Shown here piece by piece: positions 2,451 to 46,173 of a DNA stretch of 46,177 nucleotides. The notes beneath the pieces are model-generated. The model worked only from the letters and a program-made list of their open reading frames with translations. It was not told the DNA's origin and did no database searches. Numbering within the stretch: the first letter of the stretch is position 1; each line of letters opens with the position of its first letter. A program made the translations under genes and the position numbers. The stretch comes from a virus (Duplodnaviria; Heunggongvirae; Uroviricota; Caudoviricetes): the IMG/VR virus record IMGVR_UViG_2627853910_000001; one strand, 5' to 3'.

Positions 2451-3387
2451 TCAGGCTTCTGGCGCATTACAGAAAAACCAGAACGGTGCAGATATTCCGA
2501 ATAAAGATAAATTCATACAAAACACAGGGGCCTGTCGTGCATTTAGCGGTCAGACTGATATCGATGGTTCACAAGGTGCATGGTCGACAGTTGCATTTAT
2601 CTCGTGGCTGGAGAATAACGGAGCTTTCCGACATCCATACTGGATGTGTAAAGGGTCATGGTCCTATGCCAGAAACAGGGTTATTACGGATACCGGTTGT
2701 GGAAATATCTGCCTTGCCGGAGCCGTGATTGAGGTTATGGGAACCCGCGGCGCAATGACCATACGCGTTACCACGCCGAGCACGTCCAGCGGTGGCGGAA
2801 TTACTAACGCTCAATTCACTTATATTGATCATGGTGATGCTTATGCCCCCGGCTGGCGACGAGACTACAACACGAAAAACCAGCAGCCTGCATTTGCTTT
2901 AGGGCAAACAGGAAGCAGGGTTGCAAATGATAAAGCTGTTGGCTGGAACTGGAATAGCGGTGTTTATGATGCAGATATCAGCGGTGCATCGACATTAATC
3001 CTCCACTTCAATATGAATACGGGGAGCTGCCCTGCTGTACAGTTCCGCGTGAATTACAGGAACGGCGGTATTTTTTATCGTTCAGCGCGTGATGGTTATG
3101 GATTTGAGGCTAACTGGTCAGAGTTTTACACCACGACCCGCAAACCCTCTGCGGGAGATGTTGGTGCATACACGCAGGCAGAATGTAACTCAAGGTTTAT
3201 TACAGGTATTCGCCTTGGCGGTCTGTCATCTGTTCAGACATGGAATGGTCCCGGCTGGTCTGACAGGTCAGGTTATGTCGTTACGGGTTCAGTTAACGGA
3301 AACCGTGATGAATTAATTGATACAACTCAGGCAAGGCCAATTCAGTATTGCATTCATGGGACGTGGTATAACGCGGGGAGTATTTAA
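2434..3387 (+). CDS. Alternative tail-fibre C-terminal cassette (silent orientation, no own start expected)
   Basis: Begins at the crossover site with residues ([14 protein letters not shown]) matching the join in the expressed fibre (QETVNRAGNAVQKN); conserved C-terminal GTWYN motif in both. Confidence 0.7.
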
Positions 3388-3389
3388 TT

Positions 3390-3923
3390 ATGATGCACTT
3401 AAAAAATATTACTGCTGGCAACCCTAAAACAAAAGAGCAATACCAGCTAACGAAACAATTTAACATCAAATGGCTTTATACAGAGGATGGGAAAAACTGG
3501 TATGAGGAACAAAAGAACTTTCAGCCTGATACGTTGAAAATGGTCTATGACCACAACAACGTTATTATTTGTATTGAAAAGGATGTTTCAGCAATTAATC
3601 CAGAAGGCGCAAGCGTCGTTGAGGTTCCTGATATTACAGCAAATCGCCGGGCTGATATTTCTGGTAAATGGATGTTCAAAGATGGCGTAGTGGTAAAGCG
3701 AACTTATACCGAGGAAGAGCAGAGGCAGCAGGCGGAAAATGAAAAGCAAAGCCTGCTACAGCTCGTTAGGGATAAAACCCAGCTATGGGACTCACAGCTA
3801 CGGCTGGGCATCATTTCCGACGAGAATAAACAAAAATTAACCGAGTGGATGCTCTATGCGCAGAAAGTCGAATCTACAGACACCTCCAGCCTGCCAGTAA
3901 CATTTCCCGAACAACCTGAATGA
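3390..3923 (+). CDS. Tail fibre assembly protein (Tfa), partner of the silent cassette
   Basis: Paralogue of 3952-4482 (shared [12 protein letters not shown]...[12 protein letters not shown]...GKWMFKDG). Confidence 0.8.
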
Positions 3924-3955: not shown

Positions 3956-4482
3956 TCAGGCTTTTGTGGCCATTCAGGATTTGCCGTATCCACACGGCTG
4001 ACCAGAACACTGTAGCGTTCCCATGCTTCCAGTCGTGTGCGTTCCTCGTCTGTTGCCATATTCAGCCTGACAGCGCGTTCCAGCGGCTGGATGACTGATT
4101 CAGCTTCGGAAAGCAATGCGGCCTTTTGTGATTCGCCTTGTTGTTGCTGTTCGTCTGCCGTATAAATCCGTTTAACTACAGCTCCATCCTTAAACATCCA
4201 CTTTCCTGAATCATCAGCGCGGCGGTTGGCTGTAATATCAGGAACCTCAACGACGCTAAAACCTTCAGGGTTAAGCGTGGAGGCATCTTTAGTGATGGCG
4301 ACAATAATATTATTTGCATCGTAAACAATCTTTATTGTGTCTGGCTGAAAGTTTTTCACTTCCTCATACCAGTTTTTATCGTCTTCGGACCATAACCAGA
4401 TAACATCAAAATTCTTTGTTAGCTGATATTGTTCTTTCGTTTTAGGATTTCCAGACTTAATATTTTTTAAATGCTGCATCAT
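3952..4482 (-). CDS. Tail fibre assembly protein (Tfa), currently expressed orientation
   Basis: Immediately follows the tail-fibre gene; Tfa-type N-terminal sequence. Confidence 0.8.
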
Positions 4483-6861
4483 TTACACCTGTGCGACGTT
4501 ATACCATGTGCCATTGATGTATTTTTGTATTGGCCTGAAGATGGCTTCATCATCGCCATCTACTTCACCAATGATTCTTAATCCGGTAATTGCGTGTCCG
4601 GCTTTTTCATAACGACCACCACGCGCCATCAATTGAACAACTCGCGTACCCAGGCGAACATCTCTCACATATCTGGAATCAAAATTGCCATAGTTGCCAG
4701 GAATAACTTGCGAGCCACAAAGCCAGTTACCGTTATTGTCCATGTACGCCTGACCATCGGTGCCATTGGCTGTCCTTGAGTTATTAATCATGTAAAAACC
4801 AAACTGGTAGTTACCAAGTCCACCGACAAAAAATTTGCGTTCTGCATGGTCTTGTCTTAACAAAGCCTGCGCAGAACTTGTTGATACTGCGTTTCTACCA
4901 AAAATGACATTCTGGTTTCGCATATCAATCCATGAGGTTGAGCCACTATTAATAGCAAACCTGTTTGCATACACCCAGGCGTTAGTTGTTATATCTCCTG
5001 TAACATCCAGACCATGCCCCATAGTTATGCGGCCAGTTCTGAGATTAAGCGTAAAGGGACGTAGTGGCCCTATATCACCATTTTCCCCCTCATTCTCTCG
5101 TGTAGGGATGATATGCAGGCATTCTTCAGAACGGCGAAAAATGGCACCAAAAGATGAATTAAATATCCTCAGTGCATTGACTGTCGATATTTTTACTTCA
5201 CTGCTGAAAAGAGCTTTAACAAGAACATACAAAGCATCCCATTTAAGATTCATCAGGTCTTTTGTTGTGGTGCTTTGTTTGCTTCTCCATTTGAAATATT
5301 CATTGCCGTTGTCGCCTGTCTCAAACCACATGTATGAATCAGTGTCACCATCGGCATCATTTTTAAATCCAATCTTCGCCCAGTCAGTATTTCGAATCCA
5401 GGCAAGGATTGAGTCATTTTCAAAAGTAAGCCCACCGGACAAAGTATCGCCATTTTTTTGCACGGCGTTACCAGCCCTGTTTACCGTTTCCTGTAAACCG
5501 AGGTATTCGATAACGGCAGCAACGGTCGATTTCGCAAGAATATCCCGCCCGACTTTTGTCAGGGTTGCCAGGCTGGCGACATCATTCCCCGTAAAATACG
5601 GAAACTTGTCTGCCGCAGTAGCAAGCCCGGCCAGCGCCGTCAGGGTGGCATCTTTCGGTTGCTTACCCGCAAGCGCGTTAGTCATGGTGGTCGCAAAATT
5701 CGGGTCGTTGCCCAACGCCGCAGCCAGCTCGTTCAGCGTATTCAGTGCGTCAGGCGACGAGTCCACGAGGGCAGCGATCGCAGCCATAACATAAGCCGTG
5801 CTTGCGATCTGAGTATTGTTAGTACCTTTTGGCGCAGTTGGTGTTGTTGGCGTTCCGGTCAGCGCAGGACTGTTTAAGGGCGCTTTCTTGTTCGTTTCAT
5901 CCATTACCACCTTTACCGCTTTCGATGTCGCGGCCAGTGTTTCAGACGTGCTGTTGGTTGCACTACTGAGCTGAGTGATTCCCCTTACTGTCAGTGAAGC
6001 TACAGGCACATTTGTTATCTGCTCCCACGAATGCGTGTGATTGGACGGAGCCTTTCCGGCCGCAAGATCATACGCTGCCTTAACAGCCTTTGGTGTTGCG
6101 GCCAGCGTTTCCGAATCACTGTTAGTGGCGCTACTGAGCTGAACAATCCCTTTTCGCGCCGTGGTAGCGTCCTGTGCGGTGTATTTGCCATTAGCCAGGT
6201 CATATGCTGCCTTAACAGCCTTAGGCGTCGCAGCAAGCGTTTCAGACGAGCTATTGGTGGCGCTGCTAAGTTGAACAAAGCCTTTTGAGGTTAAAGTTGC
6301 ATCGGGATGATTACGTGATTGCTCATGTTTCACAATGGCTTGCTTAAGCCGCTTTGCTGAAACAGCAAGGGAATCATCTGTACCTGCATCAATTTCTTGT
6401 TCATTAGCAAACCTTGCCACCCCAACAACAGTTTCGGTCGCGGGAGGATTAATAAACTCAATATCACCAAATGTAATATTTTTAGTATCAAGAGTTTTAA
6501 TTGCTATATCACTTGATATTAAAGCGATAGTAGATGATGCTTTATTTATTATTGCTTGTTCTTGTGAGTATACAGCAAACAACGTACCCTTATTCGTATA
6601 CAATCCTATTGTATGGACAACATACTCATCTTTACTATCATCCTTCGCTGTTACATGAATTGTATCAGGGGAAACAACTTTGCCACCTATTGTGGTAAGT
6701 CGTTTTATTTCGTTTGTTATATTTGTTTGTGAAGTTGACGTGACATAATATCTACTACCTAAACCAACAGAAACAATCTCAACTTTATTTGTTCCTGTTT
6801 TGTTGGCATTAACCAGCTCCTGACGCCCGGCGTCAGTCATCGTAAATAATAATTTACTCAC
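4483..6861 (-). CDS. Tail fibre protein (constant N-terminal part plus invertible C-terminal part)
   Basis: 792 aa; tandem ~40-aa fibre repeats (GxVQLSSATNSxSETLAATPKAVKAAYDLA); crossover site inside the gene. Confidence 0.85.
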   Translation of the reverse strand: MSKLLFTMTDAGRQELVNANKTGTNKVEIVSVGLGSRYYVTSTSQTNITNEIKRLTTIGGKVVSPDTIHVTAKDDSKDEYVVHTIGLYTNKGTLFAVYSQEQAIINKASSTIALISSDIAIKTLDTKNITFGDIEFINPPATETVVGVARFANEQEIDAGTDDSLAVSAKRLKQAIVKHEQSRNHPDATLTSKGFVQLSSATNSSSETLAATPKAVKAAYDLANGKYTAQDATTARKGIVQLSSATNSDSETLAATPKAVKAAYDLAAGKAPSNHTHSWEQITNVPVASLTVRGITQLSSATNSTSETLAATSKAVKVVMDETNKKAPLNSPALTGTPTTPTAPKGTNNTQIASTAYVMAAIAALVDSSPDALNTLNELAAALGNDPNFATTMTNALAGKQPKDATLTALAGLATAADKFPYFTGNDVASLATLTKVGRDILAKSTVAAVIEYLGLQETVNRAGNAVQKNGDTLSGGLTFENDSILAWIRNTDWAKIGFKNDADGDTDSYMWFETGDNGNEYFKWRSKQSTTTKDLMNLKWDALYVLVKALFSSEVKISTVNALRIFNSSFGAIFRRSEECLHIIPTRENEGENGDIGPLRPFTLNLRTGRITMGHGLDVTGDITTNAWVYANRFAINSGSTSWIDMRNQNVIFGRNAVSTSSAQALLRQDHAERKFFVGGLGNYQFGFYMINNSRTANGTDGQAYMDNNGNWLCGSQVIPGNYGNFDSRYVRDVRLGTRVVQLMARGGRYEKAGHAITGLRIIGEVDGDDEAIFRPIQKYINGTWYNVAQV
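5480..5513. repeat. gix/hix-like crossover site, right boundary, inside tail-fibre gene
   Basis: TTCCTGTAAACCGAGGTATTCGATAA, about 23/26 to the Gin gix consensus as recalled. Confidence 0.7.
5905..6300. repeat. Three tandem ~120-bp repeats inside the tail-fibre gene
   Basis: Repeated DNA blocks (TTAACAGCCTTxGGxGTxGCxGCxAGCGTTTCxGA...) encoding the repeated fibre motif. Confidence 0.5.
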
Positions 6862-9990: not shown

Positions 9991-10992
9991 TTAATACCCA
10001 TTAATTACTCTTCGGACATCAATCGAGGTGGTATAACCACTAGCCCCAATTGAATGCACAGCTTTCGATATAAGATATTTTCCAGAAAATGAACCGAATC
10101 CGTCAAGATTTATAGTTACACCAGCAACCAATCTGGTGTCTCCAACCAATACTAAAGATCCTGTATTTTGATATCTATTTTTAATCCGCAAAGCAGCCTT
10201 TGCCTTACGTTTTGCTTCATCTAAATTAGCTACCAGTTTTCTTATCTTAAGATTCGACCCTTCTTCTACGGATGGATCTACCCAAGTATACGAAAGCGAC
10301 TTTCTTTTTTTAGGTACGCGATATTTGCACGTGCAACTTTTATACAAATCTGTAGATTGTGTGCTAAAGCTATATCTGATTATCTCATCAATACCTAACG
10401 TAAGCGTAGCGATAGGATCTTTTTGCTCAAACATCTCTTGAGCAAATATTATTAATTGGCTATCAGTGACCTTTAACGACAACCCTTCATCCTGGCAAAG
10501 TCGATGGAGAAATTTTAAATCGCTTTCCTCCATTTGATCTTCACGCGCATAATATGGATTACTATCACCATCAATAAGAAACAACAGTTCAAGGTTAGCT
10601 AATTTAGCTATAGAAGTTGCTATATCTTTAAGAGTTGTTTTTTCCCATGCATTACTTTTTAAATCACGTCTAATGCCTGATGAAACAGGAACAGAAACAG
10701 CAGTTACCTCAACAACAGAAGGTGGTCCAGAGCAAGTTATGCCATCTACCTGGAATTTCCCGCACTCAAGGACGATTTGATTTATAGGCTTAAAGCTCAA
10801 ATCAATAAAATCACCCTTTTTAGGTGTCCAGTCTCCAGACCATTTCCCATCATCATTTTTTAATATAATAGAAATATCATCGACCTGACCATCTTCATTA
10901 TCTGTATAAGACATTGACAAAACATCAGGTGACATATGAGCGGTAATATTTACATTCTGATATATAACATCAAAAAGCGTTTTACGTAACAC
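9991..10992 (-). CDS. Tail protein, P2 gpD / Mu gp44-like
   Basis: 333 aa; position after tape measure and X-like gene. Confidence 0.6.
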   Translation of the reverse strand: MLRKTLFDVIYQNVNITAHMSPDVLSMSYTDNEDGQVDDISIILKNDDGKWSGDWTPKKGDFIDLSFKPINQIVLECGKFQVDGITCSGPPSVVEVTAVSVPVSSGIRRDLKSNAWEKTTLKDIATSIAKLANLELLFLIDGDSNPYYAREDQMEESDLKFLHRLCQDEGLSLKVTDSQLIIFAQEMFEQKDPIATLTLGIDEIIRYSFSTQSTDLYKSCTCKYRVPKKRKSLSYTWVDPSVEEGSNLKIRKLVANLDEAKRKAKAALRIKNRYQNTGSLVLVGDTRLVAGVTINLDGFGSFSGKYLISKAVHSIGASGYTTSIDVRRVINGY

Positions 10993-26578: not shown

Positions 26579-27958
26579 CTACTTAATCAACGGCCGGAAA
26601 GCCGCCAGCACATCATCAGATCGTCCGATTGTTGAACCACCAGGCAACGGCAACTCAAACTCAAAACGAACAGCTTTCTCCAGACTCGCCCAACTAAGGG
26701 AATCATCGTTAATGACGTGCAAATACCAGCTCTTACAGTTGAATATTGACCGCTTAATCCTGAAACCATGTACACGACACAACTGCTTCACTTCATCATC
26801 AGAGTGAAACTTCTGGTAAAACCAGTGCCCCTTCCGGTACAACGCGGTAAAACCGTTATGATCAATAAAATAAAGCCGGCTTTTGGAACTCGCCGCTTGT
26901 GTTTGCTTCAGGACTGTTTCCAGCTCTCCACGGCTACGACCAGAAAAGAATATTGACCCACCAGCTTTACACAGGCCTTTTAGAACCGTCAGAACGGACC
27001 ATTCAGCCTCGACACTATCGACCGAGTTCAAAACGCTATCGCAAATCACGTAGTCGTAACGCCCTCGCGTTTTTAAGTCGTCCACCAGCGTATCAATCAT
27101 CCGGTTTGTTGCGGCCCTATCCAAAGTGTTTCCAGCGCCCTTACGGCGGAAAAGCTCGAGATCATGCAGGTTATATCCCTTTGCCCTGAGCATTCGCGCG
27201 TAGTCTCCCTGCCCCGAGCCAAAATCAATTCCTCTTGGCGTCTTGGCAATGATCGGGAGGATCAACGACTCATACAGGTTTGATTTCAGGCTGCCACCAT
27301 TACGCAACCGCATAAGCTGCGCATACGTCTGGATGTATGTTGTTTTCTCCAGATGAGAATACTCAAATACACCATAAGTTTTATTCAGATAACTTTGGTA
27401 TTTTTCCTTCTCAACATCAGGGATCACAAACACCGTTAGCGGTGTGCGCGTCATCTTCGCTGCTAATGCATACTGAGCACAGTGAATAACCTCACCAGAC
27501 TGAGTCGCAACACAACCACCCCACGGACCATACTTGATAACCAGTTCCGCTATGTTCTTTCGAACATATGCCATTTTCGCGCGCATATTGCCTGAGATCT
27601 GGCTTGCCGATACCTGAACAAAACCATGCTTATCTTCCAGACCTGACACCCTGCAACGCTCATCTCCGCTATCAAAATCCGTTCCGTTATGCAGTTGGTT
27701 AAACCGTACTTCGTCGTATACCGTCGTTTCACAGGGCAACACATACACCGCAGCACTCGTTATTCCCAATTTACGTAGCGCCTTCGTCCTTTGGTGTCCC
27801 GCCACCAGCAAATCGCCGCGCACTATCAATGGCTTCACAAGCCCCAGCTCCCTGACGCTTTCCGCCAGCCTCGCAAGATCATCCTCACCGATAAAACGCG
27901 GGTTATATTCCGCGCCGCGTAGGTGCGTTATGTCGTAATTGAGGTGAAGCATCAGCAC
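26579..27958 (-). CDS. ParB-N-like domain fused to class I SAM-dependent methyltransferase
   Basis: N-terminal VAGHQR ParB-like motif; C-terminal IDFGSGQG and YDYVICDSVL motifs typical of SAM methyltransferases. Confidence 0.6.
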   Translation of the reverse strand: MLMLHLNYDITHLRGAEYNPRFIGEDDLARLAESVRELGLVKPLIVRGDLLVAGHQRTKALRKLGITSAAVYVLPCETTVYDEVRFNQLHNGTDFDSGDERCRVSGLEDKHGFVQVSASQISGNMRAKMAYVRKNIAELVIKYGPWGGCVATQSGEVIHCAQYALAAKMTRTPLTVFVIPDVEKEKYQSYLNKTYGVFEYSHLEKTTYIQTYAQLMRLRNGGSLKSNLYESLILPIIAKTPRGIDFGSGQGDYARMLRAKGYNLHDLELFRRKGAGNTLDRAATNRMIDTLVDDLKTRGRYDYVICDSVLNSVDSVEAEWSVLTVLKGLCKAGGSIFFSGRSRGELETVLKQTQAASSKSRLYFIDHNGFTALYRKGHWFYQKFHSDDEVKQLCRVHGFRIKRSIFNCKSWYLHVINDDSLSWASLEKAVRFEFELPLPGGSTIGRSDDVLAAFRPLIK

Positions 27959-28575
27959 ACCTCCCCAGCCAGCAATGCGGATACAAATCCGATATAGCTG
28001 CCATTATCATCAACATAACGAGACACCGCGCAGTCAAAACGATCCGCTTCCTCATCCGTTGCTGGGATTTTATGACCTCCAAATGACAGGTACTGAACTT
28101 TTACGCCTGATTTGGCCTCATCCTTCTCAAATGGGATATCCATACCCTCTGTGTCATCGTAGACTGCCGCACTCAATAAGTTATCCAGTTCGCGCTGAGT
28201 AAAACCAATTGAGTCCAGAGCAAAATCATCGGCCGCAAGATCTGCAAGCTCCGCGCTTAACAGCTCTTCATCCCAACCAGCATTCAGCGGAATACGGTTG
28301 TCGGCCAGACGATATGCCTTCTTCTGATTCTCCGTTAGCCCTTCCAGAACAATGCAGGGAACATCATCCATCCCCAACTGAGTGGCCGCAGCAATTCGAC
28401 CATGACCAGCAATTACAACGTTGTTCTCGTCTATCAGGATCGGATTAGTCCATCCGTACTCCTGTATGCTGGCAACAATCTGATCTACCTGCTCCACGGA
28501 GTGTGTGCGAGCGTTCTTTTCATAACCAATCAACACAGAAAGTGGTAAAGAAACCACATTAAGATGTTTTGTCAT
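27952..28575 (-). CDS. ParB/Srx-fold (ParB-like nuclease domain) protein, copy 2
   Basis: Paralogue of 24695-25285 (IAGHGR, NQKKAYRLADN, LNAGWD); overlaps downstream gene start. Confidence 0.6.
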   Translation of the reverse strand: MTKHLNVVSLPLSVLIGYEKNARTHSVEQVDQIVASIQEYGWTNPILIDENNVVIAGHGRIAAATQLGMDDVPCIVLEGLTENQKKAYRLADNRIPLNAGWDEELLSAELADLAADDFALDSIGFTQRELDNLLSAAVYDDTEGMDIPFEKDEAKSGVKVQYLSFGGHKIPATDEEADRFDCAVSRYVDDNGSYIGFVSALLAGEVC

Positions 28576-30251: not shown

Positions 30252-30452
30252 TTAATGCTCGCGTCGTCCGGCGACAACTTCGGATTTGTATTTCAGGTCG
30301 CCCAGCAAGAATTGCAGCTTAAGCATCTTTGCCGCCGTGTAGTTCCCTGATTCCACAACCTCTTTCATGAGGTCATAAACGGCCGCTACATCATCAGCCA
30401 GGAACTCTTTGCGTTGCTGCTCAGTCGCACGTTTGAAGGAAATACGCATCAC
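30252..30452 (-). CDS. Hypothetical small protein
   Basis: 66-aa ORF overlapping upstream stop (coupled). Confidence 0.3.
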   Translation of the reverse strand: MMRISFKRATEQQRKEFLADDVAAVYDLMKEVVESGNYTAAKMLKLQFLLGDLKYKSEVVAGRREH

Positions 30453-30718
30453 TCATCATCTCCTGCCGCACATACAACCTCACAAAAAACATCAGCGGAA
30501 TGTTTCTCCTTGAACGAATGACGCTCAAAACCGCACTCAATATCAGGCGCAAAAACATCCACCACATACGGTCTTTCAGAATGTTCGTTTTCCCAACGAT
30601 AAACCGTAGTGACGTTGAAATGTTTTAACGCTTCACGGAACTCAACGCTGCCCGTCAGGTTTTTTGAGGTCAGGTATTGCAGGAGGTTTTTTACTACTTC
30701 ACGGTCTTGTACTTTCAT
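30449..30718 (-). CDS. Hypothetical protein, first gene after repeated promoter cassette copy A
   Basis: ATG immediately follows the repeat, which supplies GGAGA RBS. Confidence 0.45.
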   Translation of the reverse strand: MKVQDREVVKNLLQYLTSKNLTGSVEFREALKHFNVTTVYRWENEHSERPYVVDVFAPDIECGFERHSFKEKHSADVFCEVVCAAGDDE

Positions 30719-30835
30719 CGGGTTATCTCCGGTTTAACCAGGGCGGGTATCGCTCGGTTTCGGGTATAACCTTAGGAAATTTTTTCCCACCTGTAAAGCA
30801 CTTTTTATATAAATCTATAATTATATAATTCTATG
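30719..30835 (-). repeat. Repeated promoter/leader cassette, copy A (~117 bp)
   Basis: Near-identical (1 mismatch) to 44539-44655 and ~95% to 35440-35547; ends at the start codon of the downstream gene. Confidence 0.85.
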
Positions 30836-31418
30836 CCACTTGCCAGAGAGCATCATGCAACTGGATACCTCCATTGCACTGGTTGCCCCAGCCATGCCAG
30901 CCATCAGGTAAATCACCGCGAGCAAACAGCTCAATACGAGGAACATCACCTAACAGCTTTACCAGCTTGTCACGGACCACATCAGGCTTCCGAGAATGCT
31001 CCAGACGAGGCGATGTAAACGACTGAATGATCCCCGCATCAAGACGGGTCGGCAGTTTGCCTTTTACCGCAAACAAGCAATCTTCACTGTTTGCACGAGT
31101 CATATGCCCCATCCCCATCACCAGCTTATCTGGTTGTCGGCTACCACATTTGTTCCATGTGAAGCCCTTCATGGTCATCAGCCTGAATCCCCATGCTTTA
31201 ACCACCAGCAACGCTTCTTCTGGCTGAGTCGGAACCCACCACATGGCCAACAAACACGATTCAGGATTAGCAAGCTGCCAGACAGGAATACGAGCAATCT
31301 CCTCAGCTTTCATCGTTGGATACTTAAAACCAGCTCCACGATTCCCATCCTTACACTTGTCTTTGTATTCCCAGGGGGGATCTGCATAAATCAGATTAAA
31401 CAATGCAATTGCCTCCAT
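30831..31418 (-). CDS. MT-A70-family DNA N6-adenine methyltransferase
   Basis: DPPW catalytic motif (YADPPWEY) near N-terminus. Confidence 0.8.
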   Translation of the reverse strand: MEAIALFNLIYADPPWEYKDKCKDGNRGAGFKYPTMKAEEIARIPVWQLANPESCLLAMWWVPTQPEEALLVVKAWGFRLMTMKGFTWNKCGSRQPDKLVMGMGHMTRANSEDCLFAVKGKLPTRLDAGIIQSFTSPRLEHSRKPDVVRDKLVKLLGDVPRIELFARGDLPDGWHGWGNQCNGGIQLHDALWQVA

Positions 31419-31894: not shown

Positions 31895-31970
31895 TGGTTG
31901 ATGCGTGCGCCCATGAGAAAAGCGCATAGAATGTTGTAACTATATATTTATATAATTATAGAAATATATA

Positions 31971-33589: not shown

Positions 33590-33625
33590 TAAAAAAAAAA
33601 AGCCCCGCCGAAAAGGCAGGGCTTC
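33590..33625 (-). terminator. Intrinsic terminator immediately upstream of holin (tR-prime-like position)
   Basis: 10-bp stem (1 mismatch) with GAAAA loop followed by T11 on minus strand. Confidence 0.6.
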
Positions 33626-34012
33626 ATAAAGCAACAAATTACGCGGTAATCGCTTAACGCAGTTTTACTACGTTAAATGAAACACTACACCCAGTTACCA
33701 CCTAAAACAAGGTTTTCCCATAAAAAAACCTTCATATTGTGGTTAATCGATCAATAAAAAAACAATACTTAACTTTTGACCAACCGAACATCCCGACCAG
33801 GACTTCCATAATATTCGCCGATATGCCACTGCTTAAGTTGAGTAATCTTCTCCAACTTAACGCCCATAGAGTCCAGTTTCTGCCATGTTTTCGGTTGTAT
33901 GTGCTTCATTATGTTTCTTTCGGACCAACACACCAGGTTGTCGGCGTTTCGCGCAACTTCACTCTTTTCTCACCATCATTGGTAATGATTATTCCGGTAT
34001 GGGTTTTGATGC

Positions 34013-34315
34013 TCATGCCACAGCCCCTCTCAACGGCTTAACTTTGGCTAATAAGGTGTTAAACAACATGGAGTTAGGATTCATGCCAAATGGCAATTCC
34101 GGTTTAGCGGAGTAGTACAGGCAACCATTTATTTTCCTGGTTGTTATCTGTCCTTCGGCAACCATGCTTCTCAGTCTGCAACGCATAGAGTTCTGCGACA
34201 CACCAATGTGCTCCGCGATTACGTCCACTTTTGAACATGGGTGATCGGTCAGGAAATTAATCACATCTTGGGGGTTAATAATTTTGCGTTTCATTGTCGA
34301 GGCGTCCTTATACAT
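34013..34315 (-). CDS. Small winged-helix/HTH DNA-binding protein (candidate regulator)
   Basis: 100 aa; HTH-like segment SKVDVIAEHIGVSQNSMRCRLRSMVAEGQI. Confidence 0.4.
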   Translation of the reverse strand: MYKDASTMKRKIINPQDVINFLTDHPCSKVDVIAEHIGVSQNSMRCRLRSMVAEGQITTRKINGCLYYSAKPELPFGMNPNSMLFNTLLAKVKPLRGAVA

Positions 34316-34371
34316 TTATATAAATATATAATTCTATATACGGCGGGAGATATCCCGCCGTAGGCTTACTG

Positions 34372-35439
34372 TCAGGCTTTCAATAGCGATTCTTTCAGAT
34401 ATCGGGCATCAGCCAGGGCGTTTGGAGTAATCTTGCGAACCCATGCATTACGGGTTGGACTCCACTTAAAGGCGCGTGATTTAAGCAGCGAACGAATGTT
34501 TGCCTCTGGTTTGCCAGGGAAATAAAACAGGATGCGGTTATCCTCTGGATCTATCTCCATAGAAAAGCCGTCGTATTCTTCGCGCTGTGCTCCTGTTACA
34601 GACTTGACCGATTCAAGCTCCTTAATACGGCTCTGTAGTCGTTTGATTTCGGCCTTATTGTTGCTCAGTGCGTATGAAGGGAATCCGATGTGCCCACAGA
34701 AATCTCCGGCCAGTAACTCTTTGGCTTCGCTTTCTGTAAACCTGAGATCGATTAATGCAGAAAGCTGCTGTAATTGGTCTTTTTTGTATTTGCGAATGGC
34801 CTTATTTGCGGCCTTCATTTTGACGTGTGACTTCATGCAGCCTTGCAGCTTACGAAGCAACTTAAATAGCGCATCAGGATCATCAGACGAAATTCCATTA
34901 CGACCAACACCTGCGGCTTTGCTCTCGTAGTGTGATGCTTTACTTTCGCATTCAACAAACGCTTTTCTGAATAACGCATCAGCTTTAGACAAACGGCGGC
35001 GATGGCCTTTCGCGCTATAATGGTCAACTAAAATCGGCTGGCCTAACGGGATCACATCCAACAGGTCATGCGCTCGCTTATGCGCTACCGCACCTTCTTT
35101 TCTGGCTTTTTCTGCACGAGCAATATATCGGGCAAGACGCGCGTTCTGGCGTTCCTGATAGGTGTTTACGTAATCATCTCCGCGCTGCTGCTGTTCAAGC
35201 CATGCTTTGCGCAGATCTTCTGTTACGTCCACCAGCTCCGCAGGGATACAACCAGTTTGGGCTTCATAAGAGTAACCATCCTCATAGATACGCCCATCGT
35301 CTTCAACAAAGAAAAAGGTTTCGTGCTCATCGCTTTTGACCATACGACCATTAACATGGCGTAATAGGTAGCCAGTATCAGTGCTTAACAGGCTGTTAGG
35401 GTTGTTGATCCAGTCAGAAATAATTACTTGTTTATTCAT
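34372..35439 (-). CDS. Conserved hypothetical protein (possibly DUF3560-type; recalled, unverified)
   Basis: 355-aa ORF starting right after repeat copy B; basic helical central region. Confidence 0.45.
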   Translation of the reverse strand: MNKQVIISDWINNPNSLLSTDTGYLLRHVNGRMVKSDEHETFFFVEDDGRIYEDGYSYEAQTGCIPAELVDVTEDLRKAWLEQQQRGDDYVNTYQERQNARLARYIARAEKARKEGAVAHKRAHDLLDVIPLGQPILVDHYSAKGHRRRLSKADALFRKAFVECESKASHYESKAAGVGRNGISSDDPDALFKLLRKLQGCMKSHVKMKAANKAIRKYKKDQLQQLSALIDLRFTESEAKELLAGDFCGHIGFPSYALSNNKAEIKRLQSRIKELESVKSVTGAQREEYDGFSMEIDPEDNRILFYFPGKPEANIRSLLKSRAFKWSPTRNAWVRKITPNALADARYLKESLLKA

Positions 35440-35547
35440 CAGATTTCTCCGGTTTAACCAGGGCGGGTATCGCTCGGTTTCGGGTATAACCTTAGGAAAT
35501 TTTTTCCCACCTGTAAAGCACTTTTTATATAAATCTATAATTATATA
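35440..35547 (-). repeat. Repeated promoter/leader cassette, copy B
   Basis: ~108 bp shared with copies A and C; lies between Q-like gene and next gene. Confidence 0.85.
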
Positions 35548-35608
35548 TTTATAGATTTTCGATGTTCCCGATGTCTACACACCATCAAAACAGCTCAAAA
35601 TGACACTT

Positions 35609-35986
35609 TCACTCTCTTCGCTTTTTCAAATAGTCGACAACATACGCCCTGGCTTTTGCCAGCTTCCGGCGATACTGTCTGAGACTAAGAGAAAGGGCGT
35701 GGGCTTTATCAATATGCGGTGCATTTATGTCGAGGCCCCGAATCTCCCACGCCCCGTATTCAATTCGGACAACCAGCGCCGCAGTCTCATCAACTACCGT
35801 GAGGGCCGTCACAGCTCCCTCGATACTGGTTTCCAGTGAGTCATTTGGTGCGCCGCCCCCTCCGGTAAACTGGCAACGCGTAACCATCATCATTTCTAAC
35901 ATCGACGCGAAACCGCTACGGGCGTTGCAGCCATTGCGCACCCACAGCGCCCATAGCTCAAACAAGCTATCCAGATCGCGTCTCAC
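35609..35986 (-). CDS. Putative late antiterminator (Q-like)
   Basis: N-terminal LFELWALWVRNG resembles Q/QuuD N-terminus as recalled; last early gene before promoter copy B; lacks Zn-finger cysteines. Confidence 0.35.
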   Translation of the reverse strand: MRRDLDSLFELWALWVRNGCNARSGFASMLEMMMVTRCQFTGGGGAPNDSLETSIEGAVTALTVVDETAALVVRIEYGAWEIRGLDINAPHIDKAHALSLSLRQYRRKLAKARAYVVDYLKKRRE

Positions 35987-37959: not shown

Positions 37960-37978
37960 TTAACGAACTCCAGTTAAA

Positions 37979-38014
37979 ACCACGATATGTGGTATTAAAA
38001 CCACATATCGTGAG
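37979..38014. promoter_or_regulatory. Two adjacent 15-bp operators (ACCACGATATGTGGT and inverted copy)
   Basis: Same 15-mer in opposite orientations between divergent Cro-like and CI-like genes. Confidence 0.55.
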
Positions 38015-38081
38015 TTTTTCAATGGGCGAAACAAAAAATAACCTTCTATTTGTGGTCCACCTCTCGTCTTACCATGTGAAA

Positions 38082-38096
38082 ACCACTAAATGTGGT
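38082..38096. promoter_or_regulatory. Third operator ACCACTAAATGTGGT adjacent to TATAAAT -10 upstream of CI-like gene
   Basis: Same ACCAC-N5-GTGGT architecture; TATAAAT at 38101-38107. Confidence 0.45.
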
Positions 38097-38133
38097 AATG
38101 TATAAATAACCCACCATTCACGATTGATGAGAC

Positions 38134-39257: not shown

Positions 39258-39283
39258 CTGCAAGCGGGCTAACGCCCGCTTAT

Positions 39284-39392
39284 ATGATTATAGATTTATA
39301 TAATTATATAAAACGCTTTCCATCCGCCAAAAAGTTGGTTATGCTTACCTCGTTCTATAAATATAGATTTATAGAATTATATAACCAAACAC
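39284..39392 (+). promoter_or_regulatory. AT-rich iterons upstream of parA (candidate centromere/operator)
   Basis: ATTATAGATTTATATA at 39287-39302 and variant at 39362-39377. Confidence 0.45.
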
Positions 39393-39407
39393 ATGGAGTC
39401 TCGACAA

Positions 39408-40061
39408 ATGACTATCTCTGTAGGTATTTTCAACGGAAAAGGCGGCGTAACCAAATCAACAATTGCCCGTGCTTTAGCAGTTGCTTATGCAAAGGCTGGC
39501 TGGAATGTATGCCTGATCGATATGGATGTGCTTAACGGAACGGTAACGCGTTGGGTACAACGCAGAATGGCCAACAATATCGAACCAGCAATCGCGGCGC
39601 AGCCGTGCGGCACACCATCACAAGTCCAGAAAATCATCGAATCAGAAGTATACGACCTGGTTATCGTTGATGGCGGTGCCTACGCATCTGAATCAGTACC
39701 GAAGCTATCTGAATTTCTGGATATGGTTATTTTGCCAACCCGATTCTCTACCGATGACCTGGAAACCACCGTTAACACTGCTCACGGCATCGTTAAAAAG
39801 GGTGTGCCAATCAAGAAAATTTGCATGGTGTTTTCCGGCGCGGCTGAAAATGAAGCTGACTATATTGAAGCCCAAGAGTACCTGGCTAATACGCCATACT
39901 TTGTTGTCGATAAGTACATTCCCCACAAGCCAGCTCTGAGCAAAGCTCAGGATAAGGGCTTAAGCCTCATTGAATGCTCATACGTTGCGCCACGCAAAAA
40001 GGCAGACGACGTTATTCAGGGGATTATCAACCAGCTTGAGGCTCTGACTACTGCCGCGTAA
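39408..40061 (+). CDS. parA: ParA-family partition ATPase
   Basis: Deviant Walker A GKGGVTKST; start set at ATG with GGAG RBS (track ORF begins 39393). Confidence 0.8.
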   Translation: MTISVGIFNGKGGVTKSTIARALAVAYAKAGWNVCLIDMDVLNGTVTRWVQRRMANNIEPAIAAQPCGTPSQVQKIIESEVYDLVIVDGGAYASESVPKLSEFLDMVILPTRFSTDDLETTVNTAHGIVKKGVPIKKICMVFSGAAENEADYIEAQEYLANTPYFVVDKYIPHKPALSKAQDKGLSLIECSYVAPRKKADDVIQGIINQLEALTTAA

Positions 40062-40104
40062 TATATAATTATAGTTTTATAGATTTATATAAGAGGGGAT
40101 ACAC

Positions 40105-40353
40105 ATGGCCGCACCATCAAAACCACCAAAGAAGAACAGCAAAGGCGTACCGCCATCGATCGAACAACCGCAGGTTTTCGACCCGACTGAAACGCCAACC
40201 AGAACCAAATCAGGTGGGGCACAAATGGCGTTTAACGTCGACCCTGAATTTAAACGCGAGTACAAAACGTTCGCCAGTTCAATGGATATGTCATTGAAAG
40301 AAGTGCTGACAAAATCTTTTGAGTTACTCAAGGCTCAATACAACCAGAAGTAA
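40105..40353 (+). CDS. Small partition partner, ParG/RHH-like centromere-binding protein candidate
   Basis: 82 aa directly after parA; disordered basic N-terminus then helical C-terminus; iteron TATAGATTTATATA immediately upstream. Confidence 0.5.
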   Translation: MAAPSKPPKKNSKGVPPSIEQPQVFDPTETPTRTKSGGAQMAFNVDPEFKREYKTFASSMDMSLKEVLTKSFELLKAQYNQK

Positions 40354-40750: not shown

Positions 40751-40772
40751 AAAAAAGGCCCCCGAAGGGGCC
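40751..40772 (-). terminator. Terminator GGCCCC-GAA-GGGGCC with T-run on minus strand
   Basis: GC stem; A6 on plus strand upstream gives T6 after hairpin on minus. Confidence 0.5.
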
Positions 40773-40778
40773 TAATCG

Positions 40779-40901
40779 CTACTTGCTGCTAATGTTTATC
40801 GTCACATTCAGAGCGTTATCAGTAATCTTCCAACCCTCCCCATGTGGCGTAAACAAAGCTCCAGTAACAACGATAAAAATACACATACAGTATTTTTTCA
40901 T
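40779..40901 (-). CDS. Small hydrophobic peptide (40 aa), candidate type I toxin or small membrane protein
   Basis: MKKYCMCIFIVVTGALFTPHGEGWKITDNALNVTINISSK; terminator 7 nt downstream. Confidence 0.35.
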   Translation of the reverse strand: MKKYCMCIFIVVTGALFTPHGEGWKITDNALNVTINISSK

Positions 40902-40966
40902 TGTGTGGCCCTTACAGGCCGTTTCACGGCATCTCCACCGACGAAAATGACGCGAGAGCAAGCACT

Positions 40967-40983
40967 CCGCTTGTGCTTGCGTG
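40967..40983. repeat. 17-nt direct repeat CCGCTTGTGCTTGCGTG (copy 1, in putative 5-prime UTR of small ORF)
   Basis: Identical 17-mer at 41216-41232; copy 1 sits in an 8-bp hairpin. Confidence 0.7.
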
Positions 40984-41149
40984 TACGGCAAGTGGATGAT
41001 CCTTTCCTTAAAGTCGGTGCCCGGGTGCGAATCGGCGAAAAGGCCCCAAGCCATATTACACGTCCTCGCCTTCATAATGAAGGAATAACAATTGCTTTTA
41101 TTACATGTAATTACATCCGAAGAAGTTAAAAAACTTCATTCTGCATGAA

Positions 41150-41349: not shown

Positions 41350-41552
41350 TGTCTCTGTTAAAATCCCGCCGTATTGACATGAATGCGCCATTGGTGGACA
41401 CTTTCCGAGCCGTAGCAAAATCTACGGCCGGGATTGGCGTCCCGATAATCATCATGGCGCATACCGCGTTAGCGGTTTTTTTATGCGTAAAGCACGGCTA
41501 CACCCGAATTATGGTGGGGCGTGCGGGGGAGCCGTAAGGCTCGCCGGGTATC

Positions 41553-41840
41553 ATGATGACCGGTTACGCCAACCCTGTACGTCTCACCACCTCACTGATT
41601 GGCGTCAGCGGTGGTGATTATTCCAATATCAAAACTGGAACTATCATCATGACAAACTTACCCCATGACTATTACGTCAACCTCGTAAAGATCCTTCTCA
41701 AGAAAGCCTCATACGCCGATAAATTCCGCCTGGCTGAAATCATCGAGCGCGAAGCTATGCGCATCGCCAGCAACGATAACGCTGTTTCTGACGCAAAAAT
41801 CTCCCTCGTAACCAAAGTAGTTATGGGAGGTGCAAAATGA
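41553..41840 (+). CDS. Hypothetical protein translationally coupled to antirepressor (icd-like position)
   Basis: Stop overlaps antirepressor ATG (ATGA). Confidence 0.4.
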   Translation: MMTGYANPVRLTTSLIGVSGGDYSNIKTGTIIMTNLPHDYYVNLVKILLKKASYADKFRLAEIIEREAMRIASNDNAVSDAKISLVTKVVMGGAK

Positions 41841-43012
41841 AAACGCTTCCGACCGTTAACACCCTACAACCTATCCTGCATAACCAGCTCCCCGTTATCA
41901 CTACTGAACTACTGGCAAAGCTATACGGCACAGACGTTGATAACATCAAAAAAAATTACTCACGTAACGCAAACCGCTTTATTGAAGGAAAGCATTTTTT
42001 CAAAGTGGCTGGCGATGAGTTAAAAACTTTGCGAGTGACTTTAAGTCACTCACAAAATTTGCGGGTAGCTTTAAACTACTCACAAAATACCATCTCCCCA
42101 AAAACCCGCACCCTCATCCTCTGGACAGAACGCGGGGCTGCACGTCACGCCAAAATGCTCGAAACCGATCAGGCGTGGGATGTATTCGAACGGCTGGAAG
42201 ACTGCTATTTCAACCAGAACGCGAAAACGGCAGCGACCGTAACCGTCTCGCCAAACAATGCTCGTGAGGTCGTCGATACGCTCAACGCCAAACCGATGTT
42301 TTACATTAAGGTGTGCAATAACGAGCCACTCACAACCTCAGCCGATGTTGCCCAGGCATTCAGCACCACAAACAATTCCATCGTTATGGCCATCGATGCG
42401 TTACGCATTCCTCGCACAGCTGCGGCACGTCATTTCTTTAAAGAGCAACGACCGCTGGAAGGAAGCGACCGCGAAATAACAATCTATCGCATGACAAAAG
42501 ACGGATTTACCTTGCTCATGGAAAGTATCGACGGTCCAGGCGTGAAGGATATCAAGCTGGCCTACATTGAAGCCTTTAACGCTATCAGCAGCGTGTTAAA
42601 AACACAGTACGAGCGCGATCTGGCTAAACGACTGTACCAGGAAAAAACGATTATCCGCGCGGCAACAGAGCATAATCGGCTATTAACGGAACCGAACTAC
42701 AGGAAGGAACTAATCAAGGAGTTTGACAAGGCAACAGGGAAAACCAAAGCGGCGCTAAATCTGCCAGCAATGACTCAGGAAAATGTGATATCAGCCTTAC
42801 TTCTTGATCTACTCAGAAACGCCAGAGCACTTATCAGCTTTGACGAAAACCTGAATCCTCAACTCAAGCTACTACCACCGACAGGCAAAGTAGTCGACCA
42901 GGCTGATCACAACAGCATACTCAGCGTACTGGATGCAAACCTGCCAACCAGGACACTACAGGATCTGATAAAAACATGTGCTGATAAGCTGGCACAGAAA
43001 AGCAGACCATAA
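41837..43012 (+). CDS. Antirepressor (ORF6N/Rha-like domains)
   Basis: N-terminal ITTELLAKLYGTDVDNIKKNYSRNANRF and central PMFYIKVCNNEPLTTSADVAQAF segments typical of phage antirepressors. Confidence 0.7.
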   Translation: MKTLPTVNTLQPILHNQLPVITTELLAKLYGTDVDNIKKNYSRNANRFIEGKHFFKVAGDELKTLRVTLSHSQNLRVALNYSQNTISPKTRTLILWTERGAARHAKMLETDQAWDVFERLEDCYFNQNAKTAATVTVSPNNAREVVDTLNAKPMFYIKVCNNEPLTTSADVAQAFSTTNNSIVMAIDALRIPRTAAARHFFKEQRPLEGSDREITIYRMTKDGFTLLMESIDGPGVKDIKLAYIEAFNAISSVLKTQYERDLAKRLYQEKTIIRAATEHNRLLTEPNYRKELIKEFDKATGKTKAALNLPAMTQENVISALLLDLLRNARALISFDENLNPQLKLLPPTGKVVDQADHNSILSVLDANLPTRTLQDLIKTCADKLAQKSRP

Positions 43013-44122: not shown

Positions 44123-44149
44123 CACAAAGTGTCAAAATGACACTTTGTG
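44123..44149. promoter_or_regulatory. 27-bp perfect palindrome CACAAAGTGTCA-AAA-TGACACTTTGTG upstream of XRE regulator
   Basis: 12-bp arms with 3-bp spacer. Confidence 0.55.
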
Positions 44150-44157
44150 CATTGTGT

Positions 44158-44538
44158 TTACTTAACGAGAAATAAAAATGGTTTATTGTTCGGAGGTGTA
44201 ATCGGGGCTGGCTCGCTTTTGCTCATGCGATCAGTGTACCAGGCCAGCTCCTTGTCAAAGTAAGCCTGATTAAAATAGGCCATGAATGTAGTTTCAAATC
44301 CATAACGACCGCTAATACGCAGCATCTGATTGCCGTTCTCTGTTTCCAGATATACCTGGGCACGTTCCTGATTCTCCTTCAGCCAGGTTAAAGCCTCGTC
44401 GCACGAGGACACACGATACTCATCATCGTAGCCGTCATCGATGCGGCTTGAAGAAGAACGGCAAATCACGCCAACAGAACCAGCCAGGATAGTTTGAATT
44501 TTAAGGAAAGCGTTTTTGCGGATTTTAATCATGCTCAT
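44158..44538 (-). CDS. Hypothetical protein, first gene after repeated promoter cassette copy C
   Basis: 126-aa ORF; ATG immediately follows the repeat. Confidence 0.45.
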   Translation of the reverse strand: MSMIKIRKNAFLKIQTILAGSVGVICRSSSSRIDDGYDDEYRVSSCDEALTWLKENQERAQVYLETENGNQMLRISGRYGFETTFMAYFNQAYFDKELAWYTDRMSKSEPAPITPPNNKPFLFLVK

Positions 44539-44655
44539 CGGGTTATCTCCGGTTTAACCAGGGCGGGTATCGCTCGGTTTCGGGTATAACCCTAGGAAAT
44601 TTTTTCCCACCTGTAAAGCACTTTTTATATAAATCTATAATTATATAATTCTATG
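44539..44655 (-). repeat. Repeated promoter/leader cassette, copy C
   Basis: 116/117 identical to copy A. Confidence 0.85.
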
Positions 44656-45592: not shown

Positions 45593-45883
45593 CTATTTTT
45601 GTGACTTTACTCCTGGCATATGAACTTCCCAGCGTCGAATCCCCATAGCTGCGCAAAAATCAGCCACATAATTCAATCCCGCCCATTCGCGGATACCACC
45701 ACGGGCTTTTTCAATGAAAACGGCAATCCCTTTTTTATTGAGAGCAAAAAGCCGCCAGCTTTTTGTCACTTCGTCCTGGGTAGCCACAACACAAGTGAAA
45801 GCTCCCATGCGATACAGGTCCAAGAACTCTTTGCGTGTTTTGCGTACAAGTTCCATAACAAACCTCATATTTGCATGTTTCAA
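45593..45883 (-). CDS. Hypothetical protein
   Basis: 96-aa ORF overlapping upstream HTH gene stop. Confidence 0.3.
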   Translation of the reverse strand: MKHANMRFVMELVRKTRKEFLDLYRMGAFTCVVATQDEVTKSWRLFALNKKGIAVFIEKARGGIREWAGLNYVADFCAAMGIRRWEVHMPGVKSQK

Positions 45884-46173
45884 ACATCTGTTTTGTTATC
45901 AATGAAGATTAACCCTAACCCAGCGAAGTAACACAGCAGCGCCCAGGCTGCATACGGAATGCTGGATCTGGATGTGGACTCCTTTAACATCTGCCAGTTG
46001 CGAACATTGCGACTATCTTTTAAGCCAAGTTTTTTGGCCAACTGCGAGCCGCTCATTCCGGTCAGGCCAATGACTGCCCGAACTTCTCCACATGTAGGAG
46101 ATTCCCATTCATCCGCTTTTTTTAAACAAGCCGGATTCAACATTTTTAAAACAGTATCTTTATCCATAACCAT
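45880..46173 (-). CDS. HTH (XRE-like) protein with hydrophobic C-terminus
   Basis: HTH segment LTGMSGSQLAKKLGLKDSRNVRNWQ; start 4 nt from window edge. Confidence 0.4.
   Translation of the reverse strand: MVMDKDTVLKMLNPACLKKADEWESPTCGEVRAVIGLTGMSGSQLAKKLGLKDSRNVRNWQMLKESTSRSSIPYAAWALLCYFAGLGLIFIDNKTDV

Follow-up and report, generated by a model that had tools for sequence, protein, structure and literature searches.

The omega protein of plasmid pSM19035 is a ribbon-helix-helix (RHH) regulator whose repeats also lie before other promoters, an omega-type regulon, and in the phage-plasmid N15 the inverted-repeat (IR) centromere sites are dispersed over the genome; to go by its title, a 2008 study by Ravin et al. 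(cited in PMC11652158) is said to show that the N15 Sop system facilitates late gene expression. The IR sites of N15 number four (PMC7205306). Among anti-CRISPR systems, AcrIF24 represses the promoter TTGCAT-N17-TATAGT through a 17-bp inverted repeat located between the -35 and -10 hexamers (PMC9638941). The general idea of an Aca regulator controlling several anti-defence operons is already published, together with structured RNA motifs in 5′ untranslated regions (UTRs) and an Aca protein of the RHH type (PMC13551039), in work that makes no mention of the phage-plasmid family described here, of DUF3560 or of partition proteins. Here we compare these systems with an element of ~117 bp that occurs three times in IMG/VR record IMGVR_UViG_2627853910_000001, a caudoviricete genome of 46,177 nucleotides, the whole of which is called the window below. 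We propose that the element is a modular promoter-operator-leader cassette, repressed by an Aca-type protein, decorated with an array of ParG-type sites and driving a variable accessory cargo, a reading that comparative sequence analysis makes rather likely, although by no means certain. What is new is a stand-alone gene for an AcrIF24-type helix-turn-helix (HTH) protein beside repA, the presence of three dispersed complete cassettes, and ParG-type arrays shared with the partition locus.

Alignment with MAFFT and a repeat search bore out the three copies noticed in a first-pass annotation of the window, at 30715-30835 (copy A), 35435-35555 (copy B) and 44535-44655 (copy C), with 100, 90 and 99% identity over 121 nt. 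Each ends at the ATG of an open reading frame, all copies and their adjacent genes are on the minus strand, and the triplication is far above chance expectation. Copy B departs from the other two only at the upstream end and over the final ~12 nt ahead of the ATG (GGAGAAATCTGATG versus GGAGATAACCCGATG). The window itself is a circular phage-plasmid of ~46 kb with a contractile-tail gene set of myovirus type; it also encodes IncFII-type RepA, HigBA and a small ParA. A cI-like repressor gene is accompanied by an early operon that diverges from it, an immI region of the P1 type comprises Ant and the isrK and C4 RNAs, and lysis genes, a tRNA-Met and late genes of myovirus type are present as well. 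A check of copy number and context found about three elements per record in 66 PLSDB plasmids and in 74 of 5426 complete E. coli genomes, that of ATCC 25922 included. These form a plasmid family of 46-50 kb in which cassettes almost always number three per record and hold identical positions across members. The element was also found in three Yersinia phages, and parts of Yersinia phages vB_YpM_39, 41 and 44 are 98% identical to the window; relatives from E. coli, Salmonella, Serratia and metagenomes carry 2-3 cassettes each. Copies from E. coli, Salmonella (L002, L006) and Serratia (L003) were aligned with metagenomic and plasmid lineages (L223, L227, L229, L230) reached through the protein encoded upstream of copy B. 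Nearly all matches from a scan of genome contigs with a 16-base degenerate pattern were chance, and a scan of viral contigs gained nothing beyond E. coli- and Salmonella-type copies. In the literature searched, no paper on the regulation of this phage-plasmid family was found.

Comparison across lineages resolved four modules in the cassette: AT-rich units, a sigma-70 promoter, a 17-bp inverted repeat, and a 5′ stem-loop followed by a strong ribosome-binding site (RBS). Their order is invariant and runs from 8-bp AT-rich tandem units through an A-tract, the -35, a 17-bp spacer, the -10, 9-11 nt, the hairpin, an A-rich stretch with GGAG and a further 7-9 nt to the ATG. The -35 (with variants TTTACA, TTGCAG and TTGCAC), the 17-bp spacer and a -10 that always reads TAnnnT (TAAGGT, TATGGT, TAATAT or TATTAT) are kept in 25+ cassettes of the cross-genus alignment. 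The E. coli promoter, TTTACA-17 bp-TAAGGT, was missed by a simple sigma-70 scan because its -10 matches the consensus at three of six positions only; the cross-lineage comparison recovered it and provides strong evidence that a promoter is present. In copy A (30719-30835, minus strand) the AT array occupies 30828-30805, the -35 (TTTACA) 30797-30792, the palindrome 30789-30773, the -10 (TAAGGT) 30774-30769, the leader hairpin 30759-30736, the Shine-Dalgarno (SD) sequence GGAG 30730-30727 and the ATG 30718. The corresponding positions in copy B (35440-35555, minus strand) are 35548-35525, 35517-35512, 35509-35493, 35494-35489, 35479-35456, 35450-35447 and 35439, and those in copy C (44539-44655, minus strand; -10 TAGGGT) are 44648-44625, 44617-44612, 44609-44593, 44594-44589, 44579-44556, 44550-44547 and 44538. 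With the predicted -10 lying ~55 nt before the ATG, the transcribed leader would measure ~45-50 nt, and the ~85-nt leader proposed in the first-pass annotation has to be shortened, the rest of the element being promoter and operator DNA.

In E. coli cassettes the spacer is occupied by the 17-bp inverted repeat, TAGGAAA-N3-TTTCCTA, which takes the form T(A/G)GGAnn-N3-nnTCCTA across lineages and which shares its final two bases with the start of the -10. Allowing at most one mismatch, the whole window holds four such sites, the three cassettes and a perfect copy (TAGGAAAAGATTTCCTA) at 21-37 on the minus strand, which sits in the same register within a TTGCCA-17-TACCAT promoter that has neither AT array nor hairpin. 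This fourth site lies directly upstream, across a circular junction that is contiguous in L001 and L005, of the gene for a 97-aa HTH protein (HTH97; 45880-46173, minus strand), which forms its own transcription unit beside repA, and the palindrome at that position is conserved in E. coli, Salmonella, Serratia, L229 and L230. In the third Serratia copy, L223 and L227, both half-sites have changed together, to TAGGACT-AAA-AGTCCTA. The HTH97 family is present in every cassette lineage for which the repA region is covered and missing from the cassette-less lineages L224, L225 and L228, unlike the Q-like, RHH and early proteins, which occur in cassette-bearing and cassette-less lineages alike. Its profile matches the HTH domain of AcrIF24 (E 2.5e-8) and Aca3 (E 0.004). 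On the basis of this phyletic pattern, the homology to AcrIF24 and the shared operator geometry, we assign the palindrome to HTH97 and predict that the protein represses its own promoter and the three cassettes by occluding RNA polymerase. The suggestion that the element is the binding site of a dedicated activator found no support, as the promoter is near-consensus and a palindrome that overlaps the -10 has the layout of a repressor site, for which an Aca-type homologue is the likely partner.

The resemblance to acr-aca promoters such as that of acrIF23-acrIF24, which AcrIF24 controls (PMC9638941), extends to the combination of a strong sigma-70 promoter, a 17-bp spacer and a 17-bp inverted repeat between -35 and -10, to operator ends of the type TAG...CTA, and to a small dimer-type HTH regulator, homologous to the HTH domain of AcrIF24, that is predicted to be autoregulatory. 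As in multi-operon Aca regulons (PMC13551039), one operator stands before several operons of small unknown genes, and the 5′ UTR is structured. Unlike AcrIF24, the regulator is a stand-alone protein in a unit of its own, neither fused to an Acr nor encoded by the last gene of the regulated operon, and the operator differs from the TAGCTCGA-T-TCGAGCTA of that system. The units here are moreover spread over ~15 kb of a phage-plasmid, have an additional RHH array upstream and carry cargo without a known Acr.

Other operators in these genomes were considered separately. The cI operator was rejected as the identity of the palindrome, since the cI/early intergenic region uses CCAC...GTGG palindromes; three of the CCAC-N-GTGG type, e.g. 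CCACGATATGTGG and ACCACATATCGTG, lie at 37960-38130 and are probably cI operators. A 99-aa HTH protein encoded after copy C was likewise dismissed as the palindrome binder, being absent from Serratia and having a perfect palindrome of its own. That 12+12 palindrome, CACAAAGTGTCA-TTT-TGACACTTTGTG at 44123-44149, contains TTGACA, lies directly upstream of the RBS of the 99-aa gene (whose start is probably the ATG at 44094) and looks like the protein's own operator and not like a terminator. The cassette-less lineage L224 has, in the region after its Q-like gene (10540-10585), an inverted repeat of another kind, GTGATTT-N12-AAATCAC. Behind it comes CTATCGGCCAAAC, similar to the beginning of the cassette leader, and the arrangement may be an operator swap.

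Upstream of the promoter, at about -66 to -43, each cassette carries three 8-bp AT-rich units. The unit type differs between lineages (TTATAnAn in E. coli and Salmonella; TTAAATAn in Serratia and in L224, L225 and L230; GATATAnn in L223), and the variant that a lineage has is always found on either side of its parA promoter and before the small gene that follows parA as well. A matrix of 7-mer sharing between cassette arrays and par DNA is clade-diagonal. Sharing amounts to 0.60-0.94 within the E. coli/Salmonella clade, as against 0.05-0.28 with Serratia-type par DNA, whereas with their own par DNA Serratia and L230 share 0.73-0.92 and L223 shares 1.00. The window holds eight array clusters. 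Outside the cassettes, two arrays surround the parA promoter (39281-39384, plus strand) in the order array, A-tract, TTTCCA-17-TATGCT, array; another lies at 40063-40092, upstream of the RHH gene; and stand-alone arrays on the minus strand are found at 34315-34338, directly upstream of a winged HTH (wHTH) gene and followed by ...CCTCGACAATG in an RBS context like that of parA, and at 31929-31970, upstream of the tRNA-Met region. The parA promoter thus shares the upstream layout of the cassette, and the arrays always stand at a fixed distance upstream of a -35.

The predicted binder of these arrays is an 82-aa ParG-like RHH protein (40105-40353, plus strand) encoded after the ParA-like gene (39393-40061; phrog_164). 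It comprises a basic disordered tail, a beta-strand (MAFNVD) and two helices, and the best PDB matches of its profile are the RHH proteins SvtR (E 0.03) and ParG (1p94; E 0.05), borderline values with which the genomic context agrees. The residue preceding the conserved Phe of the beta-strand follows the unit type, being A or S, N, or L. A non-phage conjugative plasmid without a Q-like gene (L004) has kept the parA-RHH module with arrays at its par locus, for which reason we rejected the arrays as direct-repeat Q-binding elements (QBEs) of the Q21 type. From these sequence comparisons we conclude that the arrays are probably ParG-like operator or centromere sites. Like type Ib ParG/parH of TP228 (PMC3130281), the predicted binder is a small RHH protein with a basic disordered N-terminal tail, its gene follows that of a small ParA, and tandem repeats with an 8-bp period lie at the par promoter. 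As in the omega-type regulon, the repeats recur before further promoters. In contrast to ParG and omega, the repeats have another sequence, are joined with a second operator in the same promoter and are spread over phage genes. As in N15, partition-protein sites, in this case predicted ones, are scattered over a phage-plasmid near phage promoters; there they are 16-bp palindromes of a type Ia SopB (an HTH ParB), here direct 8-bp arrays of a type Ib RHH protein.

Further observations bear on the partition module. A second recycled leader type, composed of a GC hairpin, an AT array and '...CCTCGACAATG', precedes parA in all lineages (39354-39392 in the window) and recurs before the wHTH gene (34315-34350) and, in L223 (6331-6386), before the gene after the Q-like gene. 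L004 is NZ_CP037908.1, a 28-kb conjugative cfr plasmid that carries higBA, parA, the RHH gene and the first 48 nt of copy C (1444-1491); evidently, the maintenance module has been exchanged between phage-plasmids and conjugative plasmids.

The leader is conserved as a structure. Five leader variants fold independently into one hairpin topology, as do those of all further lineages, and the three Serratia leaders are recognised, at E 4e-7 to 2e-5, by a covariance model trained solely on those of E. coli and Salmonella. In the leader alignment 100% of cells pair, compared with 16-45% when the partners are slid, and two pairs have changed on both sides. The inner stems (GCG/CGC, GCGA/UCGC, GGC/GCC, GAC/GUC, GGAC/GUCC, GGGUAG/CUACCC) and outer stems (AACC/GGUU, GGCC/GGCC, GGCU/GGCC) vary, the loops (AUACC, AUAGU, ACAUC, AUUC and others) are not conserved, and stems and loops differ even between two cassettes of one genome, L229. 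The constraint therefore appears to act on structure and not on sequence, which argues against boxB-like recognition. The 5′-terminal stem-loop of the ompA 5′ UTR is an mRNA stabiliser; like it, the cassette hairpin lies a few nucleotides (~3-5) from the 5′ end, here set by a predicted start, has a conserved structure without a conserved sequence, and is followed by a single-stranded RBS. Given this position near the predicted end of the transcript, the hairpin is probably a 5′-terminal mRNA stabiliser or translation modulator. Serratia-type leaders (L003, L230; e.g. L003 29472-29527) have a further peculiarity that the E. coli copies lack. Their transcripts are predicted to begin with AUCUCU, six bases that can pair with GGAGAU of the SD region, and this pairing closes a long-range helix around the hairpin (minimum free energy -17.5 kcal/mol) that may act as an anti-SD.

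Below these conserved modules the genes change. Copy A precedes an 89-aa gene (30449-30718) and a 66-aa gene, copy B a 355-aa DUF3560 protein (34372-35439) and a 100-aa wHTH protein, and copy C, whose upstream neighbour is the higBA terminator (44687-44665), a 126-aa gene (44158-44538). Between E. coli and Salmonella the cassettes are 82-88% identical and the cargo proteins 45-68%, in agreement with the proposal that the element is a portable expression module that has recruited accessory genes. Searches of Pfam, PHROG, NCBIfam and PDB gave no informative match for the cargo proteins of 89, 66, 126 and 355 aa beyond DUF3560, and the literature on DUF3560 and PA0613 holds no functional lead. 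The cargo proteins are small, often acidic and variable between lineages, properties that are compatible with an anti-defence role but prove nothing. Identity among the cassettes of one genome (92-99% in E. coli, 88-97% in Salmonella) exceeds that between positional orthologs (82-88%), and in one plasmid from E. coli, L005, the leader of copy A, alone among the three, is of the Salmonella type; together these findings point to concerted evolution and recombination. The triplication nevertheless appears to be old, since the Serratia copy after the Q-like gene is closest to its positional ortholog in L230 (83%).

We propose the following model, for which protein homologies, phyletic co-occurrence, covariation, conservation and repeat structure are observed, and binding partners, direction of regulation, transcription start and cargo function are inferred. 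The near-consensus sigma-70 promoter (TTTACA, 17 bp, TAAGGT) would initiate transcription unless HTH97, bound to the spacer palindrome, blocks RNA polymerase as AcrIF24 does at its own promoter, and the same palindrome before the 97-aa gene would allow autorepression. The ParG-like partition protein would bind the three AT units upstream, in a layout like that of the parA promoter, and provide a second negative input, and the arrays may double as additional centromere sites. The resulting mRNA would begin with a 5′ UTR of ~45-50 nt in which the stem-loop precedes an A-rich stretch and the GGAG SD. Reused two or three times per genome before small, lineage-variable genes, which are candidate anti-defence or establishment genes, the cassette would, if Aca regulons are a guide, respond to DNA entry or derepression with a strong pulse of expression that is then shut off. 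A more far-reaching integration, which we regard as possible but doubtful, would make the ParG-like protein a global transcription factor and its arrays dispersed centromeres, acting jointly with the Aca-type repressor on the same promoters; expression of establishment or anti-defence genes would thereby become linked to the entry, copy number and partition state of the plasmid, and after induction the Q-like protein would turn the same transcripts into lysis and late ones.

Several observations weigh against the proposed cassette model. In E. coli the -10 hexamers, TAAGGT and, for copy C, TAGGGT, are weak and leave room for a positive factor. Thermodynamically the hairpin has modest z-scores (-0.6 to -2.1), and the covariation of hairpin and arrays comes from few independent lineages. 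None of the cargo proteins resembles a solved or annotated anti-defence protein. HTH97 is encoded in a unit of its own and not, as in a canonical acr-aca operon, downstream of the cargo. In a Vibrio relative, L226, the palindrome occurs at the parA promoter and an HTH97 homologue was undetected in the 20 kb examined. Finally, the arrangement of terminators and RBSs discussed below shows that antitermination takes place somewhere on these transcripts, which the cassette model leaves unexplained. The Vibrio cholerae-type locus of L226 (3308-3324, minus strand) has a cassette-like architecture of AT array, TTTACA, TAGGACGGATAGTCCTA and TATTAT in front of parA itself.

The position of copy B had suggested a late promoter with a Q-utilisation site. 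Lambdoid PR′-qut-tR′ regions (Q21; PMC6606751, bioRxiv 10.1101/651190) do offer a parallel, in that a remotely Q21-like gene is followed by a promoter with a spacer site and by terminators that precede the lysis and late genes. The gene in question (35609-35986, minus strand) is the last of the early operon, stands immediately upstream of copy B and encodes a 125-aa protein with remote likeness to Q21 and sigma region 4; we regard the protein as a candidate antiterminator or late regulator with a hypothetical link to the cassette. Under this hypothesis the spacer element would be its binding site, a pause in the leader would let it join RNA polymerase, and polymerase from copies B and A would pass the terminators into the lysis and morphogenesis genes. 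The two terminators named in the first-pass annotation are indeed present, at 33625-33599 and 28841-28816, and there is an additional one at 30230-30207. The first of these, a strong intrinsic terminator, ends the copy-B unit with the holin SD and ATG (33576) within ~20 nt, and the intrinsic terminator at 30230-30207 ends the copy-A unit directly before the RBS of the next gene; as the next RBS follows 12-20 nt past each and no room is left for a promoter, some antitermination must be needed for lysis and late gene expression, for which the Q-like protein is a reasonable candidate. The palindrome, moreover, occupies the position of published QBEs, between -35 and -10 (PMC6606751), and a weak full-length match in NCBIfam connects the protein with the PA0613 family, whose founding gene adjoins pyocin lysis genes. 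Yet the likeness of the 125-aa protein to Q is weak (Foldseek E 0.4-1.8), and its small unannotated family has weak Pfam matches to Phage_antitermQ in 5 of 28 members and Sigma70_r4_2 in 3 of 28. The family occurs in L224, L225 and L228, all of which lack both palindrome and cassette, and some copies of the cassette belong to the maintenance region. For Q21 the QBE consists of direct repeats (PMC6606751), whereas the spacer site is an inverted repeat that co-occurs with HTH97 and not with the Q-like family, and the same palindrome is found in the promoter of the HTH gene in the maintenance region and stands at parA in Vibrio. By inspection, the first ~30 transcribed nt contain no hexamer that keeps A2 and T6 from lineage to lineage, as would be expected of a -10-like pause element. 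Two genes intervene between promoter and terminator, several cassettes are directed away from the late genes, and many, located in the maintenance region, face the convergent ant operon. The Q/qut proposal thus has partial support, from the terminators and from the remote likeness of the upstream protein to Q21, but its direct repeat, its pause element and an association of Q-like protein with cassette are not seen, and for copy B we consider it an improbable reading and not the best explanation.

It is also conceivable, though unlikely, that partition is the primary function; the arrays would then be dispersed centromere sites, as the four IR sites are in N15, and would have become associated with promoters secondarily. 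Their lineage-by-lineage match with the par-locus arrays, the eight clusters in the window and the N15 precedent itself (PMC7205306) speak in its favour; it leaves unexplained the conserved promoter, palindrome, hairpin and RBS, which make up most of the cassette, and the fixed distance of the arrays from a -35, as at the autoregulated parA promoter, suggests an operator function. The partition reading and the cassette model are compatible and not mutually exclusive. We think it very improbable that the leader is the functional core at the RNA level, whether as a nut/boxB- or put-like signal, as a target of the C4 or isrK RNAs or as a translational operator for an RNA-binding protein. Its compensatory changes, the highly conserved SD region and the reported binding of 5′-UTR RNA motifs by Aca1 and Aca2 (PMC13551039) would fit, but the variability of stems and loops, even within L229, argues against sequence-specific recognition, and the promoter of HTH97 has no hairpin at all. 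The features of nut (boxA/boxB) and put sites were not seen, the leader having a single hairpin with neither a conserved loop nor the two-hairpin put fold, and in Rfam 15 the cassettes had no match at the gathering score or at E<=1. An antisense target of C4 or isrK was rejected because duplex energies were no better than those of shuffled controls (z -1.0 to +0.2), and the 8-nt C4 match of the E. coli leader is lost in Salmonella and Serratia. Finally, a short multi-copy element that is AT-rich at one end might be a miniature inverted-repeat transposable element (MITE) or an insertion sequence (IS) derivative with an incidental promoter, an origin that we find scarcely credible. A check for terminal inverted repeats (6 of 20 matches) and for duplicated target sites found neither; the copies keep the same three syntenic positions across genera, always up to a start codon, and the sole copy out of context, in L004, is a fragment truncated by IS26.

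The window has other features of interest. On the minus strand at 33594-33752 lies a GcvB-like Rfam match that is below threshold (34.3 bits against a gathering score of 42; E 6e-5), within the ~400 nt of non-coding DNA that separate the wHTH gene from the terminator adjoining the holin RBS, and it may represent a phage small RNA ending at that terminator. A P1/P7-type immI module coexists with the lambda-type cI: a ryfA-like RNA (40751-41048, minus strand; 135 bits), an isrK-like RNA (41409-41482, plus strand) and a C4 antisense RNA (41507-41594, plus strand) all lie upstream of an icd-like open reading frame and Ant (41837-43012). The C4 RNA was found in the Salmonella and Serratia relatives too, while isrK was undetected in Serratia. 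A 361-nt inverted repeat (3386-3746 and 4123-4483, 70% complementary) surrounds tail-fibre and assembly genes next to a Hin-like invertase (1798-2352), an appearance that suggests an invertible host-range segment. Just upstream of the packaging genes, two proteins with ParB/Srx-N domains and an MT-A70 methyltransferase are encoded (27952-28575, 26579-27958 and 30831-31418), and the stop codon of the methyltransferase gene falls within the upstream edge of copy A.

The phage-plasmids that carry these cassettes are common, being present in ~1.4% of complete E. coli genomes as well as in Salmonella, Klebsiella, Serratia, Citrobacter and infectious Yersinia phages. The cassette provides a sequence handle on an Aca-like regulon and singles out, in each clade, at least six small uncharacterised proteins as candidates for a role in anti-defence or establishment. 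In practical terms, it is a compact, conserved and predicted repressible expression module that packs promoter, operator, putative stabilising leader and RBS into ~117 bp. Our results also suggest that a type Ib partition protein may co-regulate the accessory genes of a phage-plasmid, and possibly its lysis genes, which would extend the precedents of N15/Sop and omega. If the two-repressor reading is true, unknown genes of a widespread E. coli phage-plasmid, including that of ATCC 25922, would be under partition-coupled control.

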